64,000 nucleotides of DNA from Candidatus Baldrarchaeum yapensis. Lineage in GTDB: Archaea; Asgardarchaeota; Baldrarchaeia; Baldrarchaeales; Baldrarchaeaceae. The position numbers were made by a program, and so were the translations under genes. Each line of letters starts with the position of its first letter. Positions within the stretch are counted from its first letter, which is position 1. Below, one piece after another: positions 3,519-57,689 of the stretch. Under the pieces are notes generated by a model. The model saw only the letters and a program-made list of their open reading frames with translations, was not told the DNA's origin and searched no databases. The DNA lies in assembly GCA_016840465.1 (NCBI GenBank), contig JAEOSH010000002.1, positions 36,782 to 100,781 on the forward strand. The letters run 5' to 3'.

Positions 3519-4604
3519 GTGAACTTGTTAATCATAGGTCGGAGTGTGCATCAAATGATAAAGATAGATGGGAGTCAAAAAGAAGGTGGCGGGCAAATTT
3601 TAAGATATAGCTGTGCACTTTCGGCAATATTAAGTCAGCCAATAGAAGTTTTTAACATAAGGGCCAAGCGTTCAAACCCAGGACTCAGAGCACAGCACAT
3701 AACTGCGGTTAAACTAATAGGAGAAATGGTCGATGCACAGATAACGGGACTCAGCGTAGGATCCATGAAAATTCAATTCATACCGCGATCCAAACCTAAG
3801 GGAAAAAGTTATTTCTTAGATGTTGGAACCGCCGGATCTACAGCATTAGTGTTACAGGCAGCGCTTCCCGTTGCGACATTTGCGGACAATAATGTGAAAC
3901 TGCGGCTGATTGGGGGCACATCGGTTCGTTGGGCACCCCCGATGCTCTACTTTAAAGAGGTCTTACTTCCTCTTCTGGAGAAATTTGGTGTTAAAGCCGA
4001 AATTAATATCGAGCGCGAAGGGTACTACCCTAAGGGAGGAGGAATTATTGAGGCGCTCATTAGTCCTAGTGATAGGCTGTCTGCGATCTCTTTAGACGAA
4101 TACAGCGAGGTTATCGCAATTAGAGGAGTATCCTATTGTACTAACCTGCCTGCACATGTTGCGGAAAGACAGGCAAGAAGCGCAGAAGAGATTCTAAAAT
4201 CTTCCGGATTTGAAAATGTAGAGATAATAGTCGACCCGAGAAGGAGGGGTGTTGGAACGGGTTCAGGTATAGTTCTGTGGGCAGTTACTGACCAGGGCAT
4301 AGTCGGCGGCGACGCACTTGGAGAAAAGGGGAAGCGGGCAGAAGTCGTCGGAAGAGAGGCCGCTGAGAAGTTAATAAAAGCTTTAAAGACAAAATCTCCA
4401 ATAGATGAGCATGCTCTTGACAATTTAATAATTTACATGGCACTTGCAGACGGAGAATCTAGAGTTGTTGCGCCCGAGTTGACATTACATGCAGATACCG
4501 CAATCGATCTATGTAAAATGATAGTAGGCGCGGAATTCAAAGTTATAAAACGCCCCCAAAACGTCGAGGTTGTATGCAAAGGCATAGGCTTCTCACGTGA
4601 CTAA
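3519..4604 (+). CDS. rtcA: RNA 3'-terminal phosphate cyclase
   Basis: KIDGSQKEGGGQILRYSCALSAIL N-terminal signature; about 345-360 aa. Start may be the Met at 3555 (MIKIDGS). Confidence 0.85.
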   Translation: MNLLIIGRSVHQMIKIDGSQKEGGGQILRYSCALSAILSQPIEVFNIRAKRSNPGLRAQHITAVKLIGEMVDAQITGLSVGSMKIQFIPRSKPKGKSYFLDVGTAGSTALVLQAALPVATFADNNVKLRLIGGTSVRWAPPMLYFKEVLLPLLEKFGVKAEINIEREGYYPKGGGIIEALISPSDRLSAISLDEYSEVIAIRGVSYCTNLPAHVAERQARSAEEILKSSGFENVEIIVDPRRRGVGTGSGIVLWAVTDQGIVGGDALGEKGKRAEVVGREAAEKLIKALKTKSPIDEHALDNLIIYMALADGESRVVAPELTLHADTAIDLCKMIVGAEFKVIKRPQNVEVVCKGIGFSRD

Positions 4605-16193: not shown

Positions 16194-17990
16194 TTATTTC
16201 CGAGAACTCCTTTTTATTTTCATTATCTCGTTGAGTAACTCCAGTTCTTCGGATGATAATTCCTCAGAGAACTTTAATTTTAACGTTCTGATGTGTGGCT
16301 CCGGCACGTCGACATAAATTATATCTCCTTCTTTTATGTGCCTACCGACTATGGCTTCCCTTATAGATATTGCAACTTCCATACCCGCGGTTGCTTCCCG
16401 AAGACTCTGACCTGCCTGTTGAATTTGCATTATTTGACCTATATATTTTCCACTTGATGTCATAAGGGGATACCTAGGTCGTATTCTTCCGACGAGTACC
16501 TTAACCCCCACGATTGCCGGCTTACTTCTCCTAAACACATAACCCGGCAGTATCATTATTTTTGCCGGCATTATTATCTTTTCTAATGTCAATTTCTTTT
16601 CTTCTTCTCGCTTCTTCGTAACCCAATTATCGTAATCCTCAAGTAGTTTGTAGATTATGTTGCTCCAAAATATTGGAATGTCATATTTTTTAGCTTCCTC
16701 TTCGGCGTCCGGCAAAATTTTTACGTTAAAAGCTAGTATTGCTGCTCGATATGGATCCTTTTCCATGACAACTACCGCTTCCATGACATCACGCTTTGAT
16801 ACATCGCCAATACCTGCAAGTCTTATTGGAACATCATGTCTCCGTAAGTAATTTACTAGCGCTTCTAGAGATCCCAAGGTATCCGCTTTTAAAACAACAC
16901 CAACCTTATCTGTCGAAATTATGATCTTCTTGACTTCCTTCTCAATCTCGTCAACTACGGATTGTAACTCTGATTCATCCCAGACCGCACGCATTGGAGA
17001 GCCAGCAACAGCGCCTTCGAGATTTGGAGCGACAAGTTTTACTCCTGCGGCTGCCACCACTTCATCTACCGGTGTGAACTTCTCACGAGGATCCCTTATT
17101 TCATCTAAAGGCTTTGGTAAAAGTATAGCACGAAGTTTTGTGACAATAGGTCCCTCTATTCCTCCTATTACGATGATATCATCCTTTCTCAGTACTCCAT
17201 CGTAGATTATCGCATTCACTGTTAAACCGAGTCCGAGTTCTTCCTTTACCTCGAGAATAACTCCTTTTGCCGGCCCTTCCTTAAATTCGAGTTGTTTTTT
17301 CATGTAGCGCTGAGTCAGACCGGCGAGTACAAGTAAAAGTTCAGGTATCCCCTCCCCCGTTTTTGCACTTGTTGGGACGATGGCAACTGTTTTTGAGAAA
17401 TCAGTAACTCTATCAAACCTTTCAGCGCTGAACCCGACGGCACTCAAGGACCCGACTATTTGGTATATTTTTTCGTCTAAGTACCTCCTGACGGCTGGAT
17501 CTTGCAGTTTTATTGATTCTGTAAAGTATTGTGTGGGTCCGGGTCTCCACCCGGGGATCCTGTCTATTTTGTTTGCGGCAACTAAAAATGGAACTCGCCT
17601 TTCCTTCAAGATGTCTATGCATTCCCATGTTTGAGCTTGGAATCCCTCCATTATATCAACTACTAGTATTGCGAAGTCTGCAGCGGCTCCGCCCCTAACT
17701 CTAAGGTTGTAAAATGCCTCATGCCCTGGAGTATCTATGACTAGGATTCCTGGGATTGTCAACTTCACTTTATACATTTCCATGAGTTTGCCACAAATTT
17801 TCTCAATTACGGGGGATGGAAAGAAGGATGCACCAATGTGCTGGGTCTAGCATCAGGCCGTGGAAAACGGCCTGATTATGCCCCCAGCCTCTCTTTGTTG
17901 GACGGCCGTCCCACGGATTTTATCAAGCAATGAGGTCTTTCCATGATCTATATGTCCCAAAACAACGCATATGGGCTGCCTTAGACGCAT
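16194..17990 (-). CDS. infB: Translation initiation factor aIF5B (IF-2) with an internal 30-nt non-coding insert; coding parts 17877-17990 and 16194-17846
   Basis: Exon 1 (38 codons) [38 protein letters not shown] ends at 17877. A 30-nt insert (17847-17876) with in-frame TGA and TAG follows. The frame then resumes [10 protein letters not shown]...DTPGHEAF (G2/G3 motifs). GGTGAGGTGATC sits upstream of ATG 17988-17990. The ORF track shows only the downstream 529 aa. Confidence 0.8.
17847..17876 (-). other. Candidate bulge-helix-bulge (BHB) intron inside infB (30 nt)
   Basis: Sense RNA: GCUGGG-GGCA-[UAA]-UCAGGCCG-uuuucca-CGGCCUGA-UGCU-[AGA]-CCCAGC. Outer helix 6 bp, central helix 4 bp (GGCA:UGCU with one G-U), two 3-nt bulges, inner hairpin 8 bp. 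Cutting after the 2nd nt of each bulge removes exactly 30 nt and restores ...GGI|TQHIGA. Confidence 0.6.
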
Positions 17991-32342: not shown

Positions 32343-33065
32343 ATGAAGAGGGTAGTGATAAAGATAGGCGGTTCTATAATCTTCCGGTCAGATGGAACCT
32401 TGAATGATGATCTGATGAGGAAGTACGCGATCGTAATTAGAGATTTATTAAAGGACGATATCTTGCCCTCTATTGTGACCGGTGGTGGCATTATGAGTAA
32501 AAAATACGTAAAATGGGCTAAAAACTTCGGCGCTAACGATGCATTATGTGATATGCTTGGAATAACGCTATCTCGCGCAAACGCCTTACTACTGATATCT
32601 GCTCTTGGAGATATTGCATACCCAACCGTTCCAACATCCTTAGAAGAAGCATTGAAGGCTATAGCATCGGGGAAGGTCGTAGTAATGGGAGGACTTCAAC
32701 CAGGGCAATCAACAAACGCCGTAGCAGCACTTTTAGCGGAAAGTATTGGTGCTGAAATGCTGATAATCGCTACAGACGTAGATGGAATTTACAGTGCTCC
32801 GCCTGAGATGTCCGATGCAAAATTGCTTAAAAGGATTTCGCCAGGCGGGTTGCTGTCGTTAATACTCAAGCATTCGAGTTTTGAAGCGGGAAAGTACCAG
32901 TTGTTTGACCCACTTGCTGTTCTAATTATACAGAGAGCCGGAATAGTTGTGAGAGTAATCAACGGAATTGATCCCGAGAATGTAGTCAGAGTTCTTAGGG
33001 GCGAGGACATTGGTACGTTAGTACTGCCTGAAGACAAGCGATATGGTGCGGGGGGTGGGATTTGA
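32343..33065 (+). CDS. pyrH: Uridylate kinase (archaeal type)
   Basis: VVIKIGGS...IVTGGG amino-acid-kinase fold, about 230 aa. The last 22 nt overlap tRNA-Leu on the opposite strand. Confidence 0.75.
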   Translation: MKRVVIKIGGSIIFRSDGTLNDDLMRKYAIVIRDLLKDDILPSIVTGGGIMSKKYVKWAKNFGANDALCDMLGITLSRANALLLISALGDIAYPTVPTSLEEALKAIASGKVVVMGGLQPGQSTNAVAALLAESIGAEMLIIATDVDGIYSAPPEMSDAKLLKRISPGGLLSLILKHSSFEAGKYQLFDPLAVLIIQRAGIVVRVINGIDPENVVRVLRGEDIGTLVLPEDKRYGAGGGI

Positions 33066-33159
33066 ACCCACGTAGGCCTACGCCAGCGGATCTTGAGTCT
33101 CGACCGGGGGTCACGTATAGCCCCGACCGCCGCCTTTGACCGGGCTCGGCCACCCCCGC
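33044..33159 (-). tRNA. tRNA-Leu (anticodon CAA) with 28-nt intron at non-canonical position 30/31
   Basis: Mature arm GCGGA-CUCAAGA-UCCGC only forms after removing UCGGGGCUAUACGUGACCCCCGGUCGAG (plus-strand 33099-33126). BHB: CGGC-[GGU]-CGGGG...CCCCG-GUCG-[AGA]. Type II variable arm, discriminator A, CCA encoded. Confidence 0.75.
33099..33126 (-). other. tRNA-Leu intron (28 nt, BHB, position 30/31)
   Basis: See tRNA-Leu. Central helix CGGC:GUCG (one G-U), 3-nt bulges GGU and AGA, inner hairpin CGGGG:CCCCG. Confidence 0.65.
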
Positions 33160-33218
33160 ACTGCGAATGTATCTTATTATCACGGGTTAAATTAAGTTTT
33201 CTCTTGTGAAGGTGGGAT

Positions 33219-48036: not shown

Positions 48037-49014
48037 ATGGAAATTAGAGTCTTGGTAACTGACCCTATACACAAAGATGGCATCGAACTTCTGAAAAAAA
48101 GTGGTTTTTCTGTAGATGAAAAGCCCGACATTAGCCATGATGAACTCGTGAAAATAGTAGGAGATTATGAAGTACTTATTGTGAGAGGACGTACTAAAGT
48201 CACAAGAGACGTGATTTCGGTTGCTAAAAAGTTAAAGGTCATTGGGAGAGCTGGTGTCGGTTTGGATAATATAGACTTAGAGGCCGCACGAGAGAGAGGT
48301 ATTACTGTATTCAATGCGCCGGAGGCCGCGTCAGTTGCCGTTGCAGAACTCGTATTTGGGCTTCTAATTGCAGTAATGCGCGGAATATGTTTAGGAAATG
48401 CGGCACTTAAAAGAGGAGAATGGATTAAAGCAAAACTTATGGGACATGAGTTAAGAGGAAAAGTTTTAGGAATAATAGGCTTAGGCAGAATAGGAACCGA
48501 GGTTGCAAAGCGCGCTAAGGCATTTGAAATGTACGTAAAGGCGTATGATGTTAGGGAAGAGGCCCGGCAATTGGCAGAAAGTTTAGGAGTCGAGTTTGTC
48601 GGGACTTCTAGGGAGGCGTTTGAGGAGTTGCTTAGAACTTCTGACATTATAACGATTCATGTCCCACTGACCAAGGACACTTATCATTTAATAGGCAAAA
48701 AAGAACTATCACTCATGAAACCCAATGCTATCATCATAAATACCTCACGAGGTGGGGTTATCGATGAAAATGCCCTTTATGAGTTCCTCAAAGAGAGAAA
48801 AATATACGCCGCAGGACTCGATGTTTTCGAACAAGAACCCCCACGAGATCTGCGATTAGTCGGATTACCCAATGTGGTGGCTACACCACATATAGGGGCA
48901 TCAACAGAGGAGGCCCAAAGAGCAGCATCTATAACTATTGCTGAGAGAATAATTCAGTACTTTGGAGAGAAAGGATGGCGCCGGGGGCGGGATTCGAACC
49001 CGCGCGGCCCGTAA
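48037..49014 (+). CDS. D-isomer-specific 2-hydroxyacid dehydrogenase family (phosphoglycerate dehydrogenase-like)
   Basis: GIIGLGRIGTEVAKRA NAD motif and catalytic R/E/H pattern. The last 39 nt overlap tRNA-Ser antisense. Confidence 0.7.
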   Translation: MEIRVLVTDPIHKDGIELLKKSGFSVDEKPDISHDELVKIVGDYEVLIVRGRTKVTRDVISVAKKLKVIGRAGVGLDNIDLEAARERGITVFNAPEAASVAVAELVFGLLIAVMRGICLGNAALKRGEWIKAKLMGHELRGKVLGIIGLGRIGTEVAKRAKAFEMYVKAYDVREEARQLAESLGVEFVGTSREAFEELLRTSDIITIHVPLTKDTYHLIGKKELSLMKPNAIIINTSRGGVIDENALYEFLKERKIYAAGLDVFEQEPPRDLRLVGLPNVVATPHIGASTEEAQRAASITIAERIIQYFGEKGWRRGRDSNPRGP

Positions 49015-49026
49015 GGGCCACGGGCT

Positions 49027-49039
49027 TTATGGTCGAAAT
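49027..49039 (-). other. tRNA-Ser intron 2 (13 nt, relaxed BHB/BHL at canonical 37/38)
   Basis: Bulges AGA and AAA flank a 3-bp helix UGG:CCA; no inner stem, so processing would need a relaxed-specificity endonuclease. Confidence 0.4.
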
Positions 49040-49047
49040 CTCCAGGC

Positions 49048-49066
49048 TTGCGCCCGCCGTAGCGGT
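49048..49066 (-). other. tRNA-Ser intron 1 (19 nt, strict BHB core)
   Basis: Helix GCGC:GCGC flanked by bulges GGA and AAG; inner stem CCGC-uacg-GCGG. Confidence 0.55.
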
Positions 49067-49200
49067 CCGCGCCTTGGCCAGCTAGGCTACCCCGGCGCGA
49101 TAATACCTATATGGGAGTTATGGTGGGGAAATGATTACATCCCGATACGGTACTTCGCTCTACTAATTTTACTTTTGGTTTTGACAGAAACTTATATTTT

Positions 49201-49833
49201 TTATGACATTGGTTTGCTTAATGGTGCTTCGCAAAGTCTTGATAAAAACACGAAATATCCTTTCTTTTTCGCTAAAATTTCAAGATTGCCGAATGTTTCT
49301 TCCATGAACTTCATTATTCTTTCTGCGCCTTTATTTCTTTTTGCGACGATTTGTAGAGTTCCTCCATTTTTCAAATGTATTGGTGCGAGTTTTATTAATT
49401 TGATAACAGTATCGAGTCCCTTATGGATCGGAGGGTTAGAAACTATAGCATTGAACTTCATGCCTCTAACTGGCTCATAAAGATCTCCCTGAATCACTTT
49501 TACATTTCTCACACCGTTTCTCTTAGCGTTCTCACGCGCTAACATTACTGCCCTCCTGTTAATATCCGTCATTATAACATGCAACCTTTCATTTATCTTT
49601 GCGGCCACTATCCCTATAACACCATAACCGCATCCAAGATCTAGGAAAGTTCCCTCATTCGGAATTTCCATGGTTTCGACAAGAAGTCTTGTCCCTAGGT
49701 CTACTTTCTTGTAGGAAAAAACTCCAGACGCTGTTAAAAACTCGAATATATGCCCTCTAAGGACAGTCTTTACGAGAAAAAGTTCAAATTCTGTAATCTG
49801 CTCTTCTGAATAATAATGCGGCATTCTAACCAC
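49201..49833 (-). CDS. Class I SAM-dependent methyltransferase (RsmC/METTL5-like methyltransferase small domain)
   Basis: LDLGCGYGVIG SAM motif and NPPIH (N-methyl-amine MTase motif IV). Confidence 0.65.
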   Translation of the reverse strand: MVRMPHYYSEEQITEFELFLVKTVLRGHIFEFLTASGVFSYKKVDLGTRLLVETMEIPNEGTFLDLGCGYGVIGIVAAKINERLHVIMTDINRRAVMLARENAKRNGVRNVKVIQGDLYEPVRGMKFNAIVSNPPIHKGLDTVIKLIKLAPIHLKNGGTLQIVAKRNKGAERIMKFMEETFGNLEILAKKKGYFVFLSRLCEAPLSKPMS

Positions 49834-50839
49834 TCTTCTTGAATTCCTTCCAACTAGGATACGTGCCTCTTTTCATAATCACTCTATCGATGGTCGCTGC
49901 TATGCCCTTACTCTTCTTTAGTATTTCCTCCGTCGACATAACTGCTCTGCCCAATGCTATAACTTCATCTTTTAATGTAAAAATCGCAACAAGATCCCCC
50001 GGCTTTATTCCTTCGTGTAATTTAACAATCCCGGGTACGGTAAGATGGGCACCATGACACAAGGCATCTACTGCCGAGTCACGCACCCAAATATGCGGCA
50101 GATGATCTAATGCGCGCTCGACGGGCTGTATGCATTTTCTCAGAAACTGTTCGTCGCCATCTTCCTTCCAGAAGTGATAAGCATCCACAAGATCATGAAG
50201 TGTAACCAGTGTTTCATCCTCTTTAAACGGTCCAGTTCTTGTCCTCCTTAGCTCTCTCATGTGAGCGCCGCTACCTAGTGCCTCGCCGATATCAAAAATA
50301 AGCTTTCTAATGTAAGTTCCAGCTTGACATCCAACCCTCATCAGAACGTTTCTTCCTTCTATCTCCAGAATTTTTATATAGTAAATCTTTCTCGTTCTAA
50401 GGCGGCGTTTCACAGACGATCTTACCGGGGGACGTTGATAAATTTCGCCCACAAATTCACTAACGACTTCCCTGATTTTGTCTTCTGGCACATCCCTGTG
50501 TAAGTACATGACTGTTACGTACTCTTTTCCTGCAGGTAATAGTGTTTGTATGACCTTTGTTGCATTTTCTAGCGCTATAGGAAGCACTCCAGTGACGCCG
50601 GGATCCAAAGTTCCTCCATGACCCGCTTTTTTAACATTTAATATCCGTTTTATCCAAGCAACTACCTCATGGCTTGTGGGTCCCGCTGGTTTGTCCAAAT
50701 TTATTACTCCATTTTCTATTAGACTCTCTATTGGACGTTCGTCTGGGTAACAACCGTATCTGGGATCTGTTTCTGCCTCGCTTTTGACAATGATCTTTCT
50801 TTTCACATCGGATGGAAGCTTACACTCCATTAATGCCAC
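49826..50839 (-). CDS. cbf5: H/ACA RNP pseudouridine synthase Cbf5 (TruB family + PUA)
   Basis: INLDKPAGPTSHEVVAWIKRIL...GHGGTLDPGVTGVLPIAL. The gene is uninterrupted here. Confidence 0.85.
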   Translation of the reverse strand: MALMECKLPSDVKRKIIVKSEAETDPRYGCYPDERPIESLIENGVINLDKPAGPTSHEVVAWIKRILNVKKAGHGGTLDPGVTGVLPIALENATKVIQTLLPAGKEYVTVMYLHRDVPEDKIREVVSEFVGEIYQRPPVRSSVKRRLRTRKIYYIKILEIEGRNVLMRVGCQAGTYIRKLIFDIGEALGSGAHMRELRRTRTGPFKEDETLVTLHDLVDAYHFWKEDGDEQFLRKCIQPVERALDHLPHIWVRDSAVDALCHGAHLTVPGIVKLHEGIKPGDLVAIFTLKDEVIALGRAVMSTEEILKKSKGIAATIDRVIMKRGTYPSWKEFKKSG

Positions 50840-56229: not shown

Positions 56230-56682
56230 TTATTCTAATCTAACTCTTCTCAGAAGGTTGTTCTCCTCGATGTACATCATCAAGTGTCTGACGCTCTTGA
56301 ACATCCCACCCTTTGCTCTTCTGTAAAGCATCCTATAAACGGATCTTGTAATCAATCTTCTATCTCGCAATTCCCTCAACTTCTTTCTTATTGCACGTAT
56401 TCTCGCCATCCATGCTTCTTTTCTTGGCATTCTTGCCGTCTTTTTACCCTTCTTTGATCCAGGACCTCTTTTGTGTTTCCTCTTTTTGCGCATTTTGACC
56501 CTGATTCTAGAGATTCCCTTCTCGGGCTTGACGCGTATCACACCTTCCTTAATCAGCCTCCTTATATCCTCCCTAGTTGCTGCCATTGAAACTTCATCTA
56601 TCATCTCAGGATCTATCCAGATCCTATTCTCCCCCACGCCCAAAATCTCAGCTGCTAATCTCCTCTTGCTCCGCAAATTCAA
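56230..56682 (-). CDS. rpl19e: Ribosomal protein L19e
   Basis: [25 protein letters not shown]. Confidence 0.9.
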
Positions 56683-57094
56683 GGGCTTCCTCCTCCTCTT
56701 CCTCTATAAACTCCCTAGGATTGAGAATCTTAAATCCCATATCAATAGCCTTCTTAACGATCTCCTTTCTCTTCTTTTTGCCCACAGTATGCGCAATTCT
56801 TATGGCATGCTCTTCTGGGTCTAATTTGTCAAGATCTTCGGGTCGGTATACGAGGATTTCCTTGTACCCAGATGGATGCAACCCTCTCACAGCTCTGGGG
56901 GCTCCGTACCCCACAGTTGGCATTTTGCCCCAGCCTTTCCATTTTTGTCGTACTTTGTTATCAATTCCCCTCGGCCTTCTCCAGTTCTCCTTAACCCTCA
57001 CATACCTCCAACTCTCGTACCTCACAAAGTCTGGTTTCTTTCTTTTTAGTCTTTCCCTGAGTCTCAAAAGCTGCTGCTTTGTTTCTAGAGTCAT
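56648..57094 (-). CDS. rpl32e: Ribosomal protein L32e
   Basis: [31 protein letters not shown]. Confidence 0.9.
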
Positions 57095-57110
57095 AAACTC
57101 ACTCTCCGGA

Positions 57111-57689
57111 TCATATTATGCGTTTAACGACATCTCCCAACTGGCGCTCGTAAAGGTATATTCCATCTTGGAATATCCTTGGATCCTTATCCTTTATTTT
57201 CGTTGCCTGTTGTATGTTTGCGGCCGTCTGCCCTACCTCTTCTATATTTATACCTTCAACCACGACATCGTCCTGCTCAACGCGAACTTTGACATTTCCG
57301 ACAATTTCAGCAACACGAGGAGCCCGTTCACCGAGAAAGTTTTCAATGTACACTTTGTTCCCTTCAACTCTAACGTTTATGGGGTAGTGAGAATACACTA
57401 TCTTAAGACGGTAGACGAACCCCTTTGTCACACCAATGATCATATTTCTGATATGTGCGGCAATCGTTCCAACCATGGCCTTTTCGCGTCTCCTAGGAAA
57501 ATAGGAAAATACCTTGACGACCCTTGAGTTCTCGTCATACTCTATAATCACGGGTGCGTAATCAAAGGCCCGTTCCAAGACCCCTTTCGGACCTTCAACT
57601 CTTACCTTCTTCCCCTCAATGGAAATTTTTACATCCTCTGGAACCTTGACATCAACTTCCACCACTGGAAGTCGTGCCATTGTTATCAC
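57111..57689 (-). CDS. rpl6: Ribosomal protein L6
   Basis: Typical two-domain L6 (VKISIEGKKVRVEGPKG...). Confidence 0.9.
   Translation of the reverse strand: MITMARLPVVEVDVKVPEDVKISIEGKKVRVEGPKGVLERAFDYAPVIIEYDENSRVVKVFSYFPRRREKAMVGTIAAHIRNMIIGVTKGFVYRLKIVYSHYPINVRVEGNKVYIENFLGERAPRVAEIVGNVKVRVEQDDVVVEGINIEEVGQTAANIQQATKIKDKDPRIFQDGIYLYERQLGDVVKRII

Follow-up and report, generated by a model that had tools for sequence, protein, structure and literature searches.

A predicted 28-nt bulge-helix-bulge intron at the non-canonical position 30/31 of a tRNA-Leu(CAA) gene from a Baldrarchaeia-labelled Asgard archaeon

Archaeal transfer RNA (tRNA) introns whose defining motif is the bulge-helix-bulge (BHB) and which occupy non-canonical positions were reportedly described in crenarchaeal tRNA genes, especially those of the Thermoproteales, by Marck & Grosjean in 2003 and by Sugahara et al. 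in 2008. Non-canonical sites reviewed by Yoshihisa include 20/21, 22/23, 25/26, 29/30, 30/31 and 45/46, and split tRNA-Lys(CUU) genes broken at 30/31 are known from Nanoarchaeum equitans and Staphylothermus (PMC4090602). With tRNAscan-SE 2.0, which searches for them by default, 673 noncanonical introns were found in 217 archaeal genomes (PMC8450103). Among Asgard archaea, introns occur in 92–95% of the tRNA genes of Atabeyarchaeia and Freyarchaeia, often at non-canonical sites and often several per gene (PMC11291895); our literature search found no paper joining Baldrarchaeia with introns. Here we analyse a tRNA-Leu(CAA) gene in a 64,000-nucleotide (nt) stretch of Candidatus Baldrarchaeum yapensis DNA (contig JAEOSH010000002.1, positions 36,782 to 100,781; hereafter the window, whose numbering is used below). 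As judged from its sequence, this is very probably a functional gene with a single 28-nt intron of the archaeal, protein-spliced type, which separates positions 30 and 31.

The predicted intron resembles the crenarchaeal non-canonical introns in being protein-spliced, defined by a BHB, placed outside 37/38, dependent on an alternative precursor fold and short (14–28 nt), and the tRNA-Leu(CAA) genes of Vulcanisaeta AZ3, Thermoproteus and a Thermoproteales metagenome-assembled genome (MAG) likewise carry introns at 30/31, 28/29, 32/33 or nearby. It differs from them in its Baldrarchaeia-labelled Asgard host and in its sequence, which is unrelated to theirs except at the positions forced by pairing with exon nucleotides 25–28. 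With Atabeyarchaeia and Freyarchaeia it shares an Asgard host and non-canonical introns, and a sister lineage (L077, L078, L081 and L083; L numbers designate the loci compared here) has three introns in tRNA-Leu(CAA), whereas the host bears the label of a different Asgard class, the hydrothermal Baldrarchaeia, and the window copy has a single intron. The split tRNA-Lys(CUU) genes show the same discontinuity at 30/31 and presumably use the same endonuclease and ligase machinery; there two genes are joined in trans, whereas here a contiguous gene would lose an intron in cis. Canonical 37/38 introns, one of which lies in the tRNA-Ser(GGA) gene of the window, have the same BHB geometry with the cut after the second bulge nucleotide. 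By comparison, their outer helix is the anticodon stem and the mature domain stays folded, whereas the D and anticodon stems would partly unfold here. Position 30/31 is an already known non-canonical site and off-position archaeal introns are well documented, so that the finding is correct but ordinary.

The gene occupies 33044–33159 on the minus strand and reads, from 33159 to 33044, GCGGGGGUGGCCGAGCCCGGUCAAAGGCGGCGG-UCGGGGCUAUACGUGACCCCCGGUCGAG-ACUCAAGAUCCGCUGGCGUAGGCCUACGUGGGUUCAAAUCCCACCCCCCGCACCA (5' exon, intron and 3' exon). The precursor has 116 nt including the CCA, which is encoded at 33044–33046, and the spliced product has 88 nt. The 5' exon (33127–33159, minus) provides tRNA positions 1–30, namely the 5' strand of the acceptor stem, the D arm, G26 and the first four anticodon-stem nucleotides GCGG. 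The 3' exon (33044–33098, minus) provides positions 31–76, namely A31, the anticodon loop with the CAA anticodon at 33093–33095 (minus, by ARAGORN), the 3' strand of the anticodon stem, the long variable arm, the T arm, the 3' strand of the acceptor stem, A73 and the CCA. Between them lies the BHB-type intron UCGGGGCUAUACGUGACCCCCGGUCGAG (33099–33126, minus, read 33126 to 33099). The Rfam tRNA model (RF00005) matches 33047–33159 on the minus strand with 41.0 bits, against a gathering score of 29, and leaves a 37-nt block of the anticodon arm unaligned. Nothing is reported at the locus by ARAGORN in its default mode; in its intron mode (-i) the program returns tRNA-Leu(caa) at c[33044,33159] with an intron of 28 nt. 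Deletion of plus-strand 33099–33126 gives a class II tRNA-Leu(CAA) of 88 nt that ARAGORN folds into a flawless cloverleaf, with a long variable arm, a CAA anticodon, A73, a 7-base-pair (bp) acceptor stem and the T loop GGGUUCAAAUCCC. Its anticodon arm reads GCGGA-CUCAAGA-UCCGC, with A31 paired to U39.

Because the exon and intron boundaries share short repeats, three cut pairs yield an 88-nt product, and the position of the intron was therefore decided by BHB geometry. For cuts after nucleotides a and b, this geometry places the 5' bulge at (a-1, a, a+1), the central helix at a-5 to a-2 paired with b-5 to b-2, and the 3' bulge at (b-1, b, b+1). Only one cut pair satisfies it, after G30 and after the last G of the intron, and a canonical tRNA results when each bulge is cut there after its second nucleotide and the ends are joined. 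When the cut pair is moved by +1 or +2, G:A or G:G clashes disrupt the central helix, as checked by hand. In an exhaustive scan of the pre-tRNA for a 4-bp central helix with 3-nt bulges, the 30/31 pair alone has a substantial inner helix (outer helix 2 bp, inner helix 5 bp); the other matches are noise of 2/2 bp and restore no tRNA.

Intron-less orthologues point to the same junction. A pattern scan with one genome per species gave 60 tRNA-Leu(CAA) loci, in which the intron-less genes (L002, L005, L007, L010, L018, L023 and others) read ...GGUCAAAGGCGGCGGACUCAAGAUCCGC..., that is, the predicted exon–exon junction. The junction in these genes is GGCGGCGG joined to ACUCAAGAUCCGC, with ACUCAAGA directly following ...GGCGGCGG, and the intron-less L018 is near-identical to the entire predicted mature tRNA. 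The shared UC/AC dinucleotide at the boundaries would also allow an intron elsewhere in the anticodon arm, at 31/32 or at 32/33, the latter being the choice of ARAGORN -i, which draws cggtc-intron-tcaag, reports 'Intron Insertion Position(35-36)' and also ends with an 88-nt product. Such a placement is extremely unlikely: the ARAGORN product leaves U31 opposite U39, whereas the intron-less orthologues have A31; the +1 and +2 shifts unpair the four central positions, again by hand check; and the BHB scan returns neither site, BHB motifs lying outside the model of ARAGORN. The 32/33 placement was rejected for its U31·U39 mismatch and its lack of a BHB. Nor is the gene intron-less or interrupted at the canonical 37/38, one nucleotide 3' of the anticodon, since the loop CUCAAGA is uninterrupted and the insert precedes A31. 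An earlier note on this DNA, made by a reader who saw only the sequence and its reading frames, had placed the gene correctly in position, strand and content, as Rfam (41.0 bits) and the identical ARAGORN -i coordinates indicate. Its call of tRNA-Leu(CAA) agrees with Rfam, ARAGORN -i and the spliced cloverleaf, and its 28-nt intron at 30/31 with the broken helices of the shifted cuts and the junction of the intron-less orthologues.

In the BHB predicted for the precursor, the central helix is formed by exon nucleotides C25 G26 G27 C28 (33129–33132, minus) and intron nucleotides GUCG (33101–33104, minus) through the pairs C25–G, G26–C, G27·U and C28–G, the exon strand being assigned by hand check and scan, and the intron strand by scan and comparison. 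The 5' bulge consists of G29, G30 and the first intron nucleotide U (33126–33128, minus), with the predicted cut after G30, between 33127 and 33126, in agreement with the intron-less orthologues. The 3' bulge consists of the intron nucleotides A and G and of A31 (33098–33100, minus), with the predicted cut after the last intron G, between 33099 and 33098. Inside the intron, fold and scan give a hairpin with a 5-bp stem CGGGG/CCCCG and an 11-nt loop (33105–33125, minus). On the other side, G23 and G24 (33133–33134, minus), which normally belong to the D stem, pair with C32 and U33 (33096–33097, minus) as G24–C32 and G23·U33, the outer helix of 2 bp found by hand and by the scan.

The motif thus has a 4-bp central helix, two 3-nt bulges on opposite strands and both flanking helices, the outer one weak (2 bp). 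Among 200,000 shuffles of the 28 nt, 3.3% have all 4/4 central pairs, 0.2% also have an inner helix of at least 3 bp and 0.04% reach 5 bp; the BHB of the intron is more than chance (about 4e-4 by shuffling). Its central helix CGGC:GUCG, bulges and hairpin CGGGG:CCCCG had all been described in the earlier note; every one of them is present, and the comparison of eight introns given below supports the BHB fold. The same note was right about the 2-bp outer helix and not right in calling the motif relaxed, since both 3-nt bulges and the 4-bp helix are there. Relaxed motifs (hBH, HBh' and BHL) lack one bulge (PMC6379350). In the fold that has comparative support no bulge is absent or replaced by a loop, and the 5' bulge is missing only in the minimum-free-energy (MFE) register considered below. 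The motif is therefore to be classed as a complete rather than a relaxed BHB, located at a non-canonical position. No box C/D-like motif was seen in the intron by eye.

Relatives of the locus were found through the neighbouring RsmB/NOP-PUA methyltransferase, whose homologues with 57–62% identity carry Baldrarchaeia or Odinarchaeota labels and keep the gene arrangement, with the genes for valyl-tRNA synthetase (ValRS), UMP kinase and tRNA-Leu and the divergent rsmB/PUA gene in synteny. At its gathering score, Rfam reports no tRNA in the syntenic loci L076–L079. In L077, L078/L079, L081 and L083, a motif search located a tRNA-Leu(CAA) orthologue, which lies directly upstream of the rsmB-like gene. 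The exons of these sister-lineage genes are almost those of the window, and three introns interrupt them, of about 24 nt in the D loop, 24–26 nt at 30/31 and about 19 nt in the variable arm (ARAGORN coordinates, minus strand: L077 3702–3857, L078 3792–3947 and L079 1563–1718). Their middle intron reads GCGG/ACAG...CUGGCCGAA/ACUC (slashes mark the cuts), with a one-nucleotide ambiguity at the boundary that the BHB geometry settles as 30/31. The hairpin of this intron differs from that of the window, and its tail GCCG-AA pairs with C25–C28 as GUCG-AG does in the window. In the closest relative, L076, whose neighbouring protein is 73% identical, the contig ends inside the tRNA at about position 28. 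ARAGORN wrongly labels the three-intron orthologues tRNA-Ser(aga).

More distant tRNA-Leu(CAA) genes also have introns at 30/31. Vulcanisaeta sp. AZ3 (L011/L022) has one of 15 nt, and four other Vulcanisaeta genomes are intron-less. L064 and L069 have one of 14 nt, and in both the 3' strand of the stem holds a second insert. L073 has one of 18 nt, next to an Nre-family protein that shares about 73% identity with proteins carrying Hadarchaeaceae, Hodarchaeaceae or Hadesarchaea labels, and intron-less Hadarchaeales genes show the same exon junction. The pairing of exon 25–28 with the intron tail is GGGC:GCCC in Vulcanisaeta AZ3, CGUC:GGCG in L064/L069 and CGCC:GGCG in L073. From eight 30/31 introns of at least three lineages we built an ungapped alignment of the BHB core, in which the structure named above is 85% paired and its central helix 100%, and sliding the 3' partners lowers the pairing to 19–57%. 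The central helix is paired in 8/8 introns, with changes on both sides at 2/4 pairs (positions 25 and 27); the two inner pairs beside it are likewise 100% paired with covariation in 8/8, and the hairpin loop is not conserved. None of 500 shuffles reached the covariation score.

The tRNA-Leu(CAA) genes of L067, L068, L072, L048 and L071 were left out of this set after their BHB geometry had been checked by hand. L067, L068 and L072 were considered as further 30/31 cases, and their 28-nt intron fits 32/33; the intron of L048 and L071 fits 28/29, not 30/31. In Thermoproteus-like genes (L020, L065, L066, L070, L074 and L075), the 5' strand of the anticodon stem is interrupted by an intron of about 26 nt, its position ambiguous owing to a CAGG repeat, and the T loop by another. 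In L070 (minus; reverse-complement offsets 200 and 294), the gene's 5' part is present again as a truncated tandem duplicate immediately upstream of the full copy.

Could the tRNA gene instead be decaying or non-functional, its insert being fortuitous and never removed? It scores just 41 bits against the general tRNA model, and a second tRNA-Leu(CAA) may lie elsewhere in the genome, beyond the sequence inspected. The low score is due to the insert alone, as the exons form a flawless class II tRNA near-identical to intron-less orthologues; the locus and its intron site are kept in relatives whose flanking protein is 57–62% identical; and the insert carries a BHB that shuffling rarely produces. 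With these observations we regard decay as very unlikely.

Several points weigh against a functional gene with a BHB-spliced intron. The BHB is not the minimum-energy fold: at 37 °C the MFE is -53.9 kcal/mol, compared with -49.7 kcal/mol for the best BHB-containing fold (a gap of 4.2), and at 70–85 °C a slipped fold is better by about 4–6 kcal/mol. The BHB competes with the D stem (nucleotides 23–25) and the anticodon stem (nucleotides 27–30), so that half of the anticodon stem must melt along with the D stem. Its outer helix comprises only one G–C and one G·U pair, and these columns are invariant, so the comparison gives it no support. The BHB-core alignment was built around the assumed splice site, which somewhat favours the structure. 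Neither EndA (tRNA_int_endo) nor RtcB was found by Pfam among approximately 60 scanned open reading frames (ORFs) of the window, the host enzymes being assumed from the literature, and we infer splicing itself from the DNA sequence. Competition between precursor folds is common among off-position introns.

The slipped fold arises because the exon repeat CGGCGG lets C28–G30 and the first intron U pair with GUCG, extending the inner hairpin into a continuous 9-bp helix without a 5' bulge (C28–G39:C51–G59 in gene numbering). An endonuclease recognising this helix would find the 5' site among G·U/U·G pairs and a large loop around the 3' site, a relaxed motif of the HBh'/BHL type with the same cut sites. 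This register is the MFE one, 4.2 kcal/mol better than the BHB-constrained fold; relatives with the exon CGGCGG can form 3/4 of the slipped pairs (hand check); and (alpha-beta)2 enzymes accept relaxed motifs (PMC6379350). The introns of Vulcanisaeta, L064 and L073, however, occupy the same site, cannot form the slipped register and all form the 25–28 helix with compensatory changes. Because lineages unable to slip still covary at 25–28, the two-bulge register appears to be under selection, and recognition of the slipped fold is improbable.

For the complete BHB, a plausible splicing route can be proposed. The BHB can form when nucleotides 23–28 of the precursor (the D-stem 3' strand, G26 and the two leading nucleotides of the anticodon stem) exchange their cloverleaf partners for the final portion of the intron and for C32 and U33. 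By analogy with the known pathway, the endonuclease EndA would cut after the second nucleotide of each bulge, an RtcB-type ligase would join G30 to A31, and the exons would refold into a cloverleaf in which A31 pairs with U39. In Asgard and TACK archaea, and thus presumably in this host, EndA would be an (alpha-beta)2 enzyme with an L1/CSL loop and a broad substrate range. Asgard EndA has been assigned to (alpha-beta)2 enzymes bearing the L1 (crenarchaeal-type) loop that is tied to broad specificity (Kaneta et al., PMC5829648), and efficient processing of non-standard substrates is confined to the (alpha-beta)2 and epsilon2 enzymes (PMC6379350). As for the intron itself, a neutral or selfish insertion, retained only because it can be spliced, is the most likely reading, because nothing in the intron is conserved except what the BHB requires. 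Since relatives carry an intron at the same site and two more besides, introns have been gained or lost within the lineage. The window also encodes RtcA, the RNA 3'-terminal phosphate cyclase (3519–4604, plus), with RTC and RTC_insert domains (E = 2e-75).

The tRNA-Leu(CAA) gene is flanked by a UMP-kinase gene on one side and by the divergent RsmB/NOP-PUA methyltransferase gene on the other. Its sequence is identical across three independently assembled contigs (L061–L063), and the tRNA is identical in contig JBQSGI010000102.1 (MAG GCA_054385695.1, NCBI label Candidatus Baldrarchaeia) and in two Joint Genome Institute (JGI) metagenome contigs. The UMP-kinase ORF (32343–33065, plus) overlaps the 3' end of the tRNA on the opposite strand by 22 nt (33044–33065), and the complement of the acceptor and T stems codes for its C-terminal residues GAGGGI. 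An A/T-rich 16-mer, GGTTAAATTAAGTTTT (33185–33200, no strand assigned), lies 26–41 nt upstream of the 5' end of the tRNA, within the intergenic region from which the tRNA and the rsmB-like gene diverge, and recurs at the equivalent place in the relative L076 (73% identity); it is a possible TATA/BRE promoter element.

In addition to the tRNA-Leu(CAA) insert, the window holds three BHB-type inserts, one in infB and two in tRNA-Ser(GGA). A previous count had given three introns in all, each cut after the second bulge nucleotide; the rule holds for tRNA-Leu and infB, and the count is four, since tRNA-Ser(GGA) has two. The aIF5B (infB) gene (16194–17990, minus) contains a 30-nt insert, AUCAGGCCGUUUUCCACGGCCUGAUGCUAG, at 17847–17876 (minus), with in-frame stop codons, between ...EAGGI and TQHIGAS..., and its removal gives a continuous aIF5B of 588 amino acids. 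By hand, the insert forms a full BHB with a central helix GGCA:UGCU, bulges UA/A and AG/A, an inner hairpin of 8 bp and an outer helix GGG:CCC. If so read, it would be a BHB intron in an Asgard protein-coding gene, and it looks of more interest than the tRNA-Leu intron. In Crenarchaeota, cbf5 is the classic gene with a BHB intron in its mRNA. In the window, the cbf5 gene (49826–50839, minus; TruB_N, TruB_C_2, PUA and DKCLD domains) appears uninterrupted. The mRNA BHB introns found in our literature search were those of crenarchaeal cbf5 (PMC2738675).

The tRNA-Ser(GGA) gene (48976–49096, minus), which ARAGORN -i miscalls Pyl(cta), has its first insert, of 19 nt, at 29/30 (49048–49066, minus), with the central helix G24C25G26C27:GCGC, bulges GG/A and AA/G, the inner hairpin CCGC(UACG)GCGG and an outer helix of 1 bp. 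Its second insert, of 13 nt, lies at 37/38 (49027–49039, minus), with 3/4 central pairs and no inner helix. Removal of both gives a perfect 89-nt cloverleaf. Shared sequence among the four inserts of the window, which would be a sign of intron transposition, was not seen by eye. Elsewhere in the window, the L19e–S8 gap of the ribosomal-protein operon (56683–57689) is expected to hold L32e and L6 on the minus strand; crude ORF picking gave there a 316-amino-acid antisense ORF (56577–57527, plus) with no Pfam hit.

Our comparison also raises the idea that, across archaeal phyla, 30/31 of tRNA-Leu(CAA) is a site determined by sequence at which BHB introns land again and again. Introns with unrelated hairpins are located precisely at 30/31 in the Asgard lineage, in one Vulcanisaeta whose congeners have no intron and in Hadarchaeota-like contigs whose relatives have none. 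For all of the 30/31 introns, exon nucleotides 23–28 and 31–33 already provide one half of the BHB; the ending ...GAA/A is shared by nearly all of them. We consider the idea doubtful. Such a pattern would agree with repeated intron gain, whether the endonuclease and ligase acted in reverse or introns transposed, at exons that already supply half a BHB, and would agree less well with a single ancient inherited intron.

The tRNA-Leu intron matters little beyond correct annotation. Standard gene finders that have no BHB step miss or misplace the gene: ARAGORN finds none by default and with -i sets the intron at 32/33, and the Rfam gathering score misses the three-intron orthologues. The genomes of this lineage therefore seem to be without tRNA-Leu(CAA) unless tRNAscan-SE 2.0 or a SPLITS-type search is used. 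With this gene, a Baldrarchaeia-labelled lineage is added to the Asgard groups that have non-canonical tRNA introns, and together with the three-intron genes of the sister lineage it makes a small, clean case of a fixed locus that has gained or lost introns.

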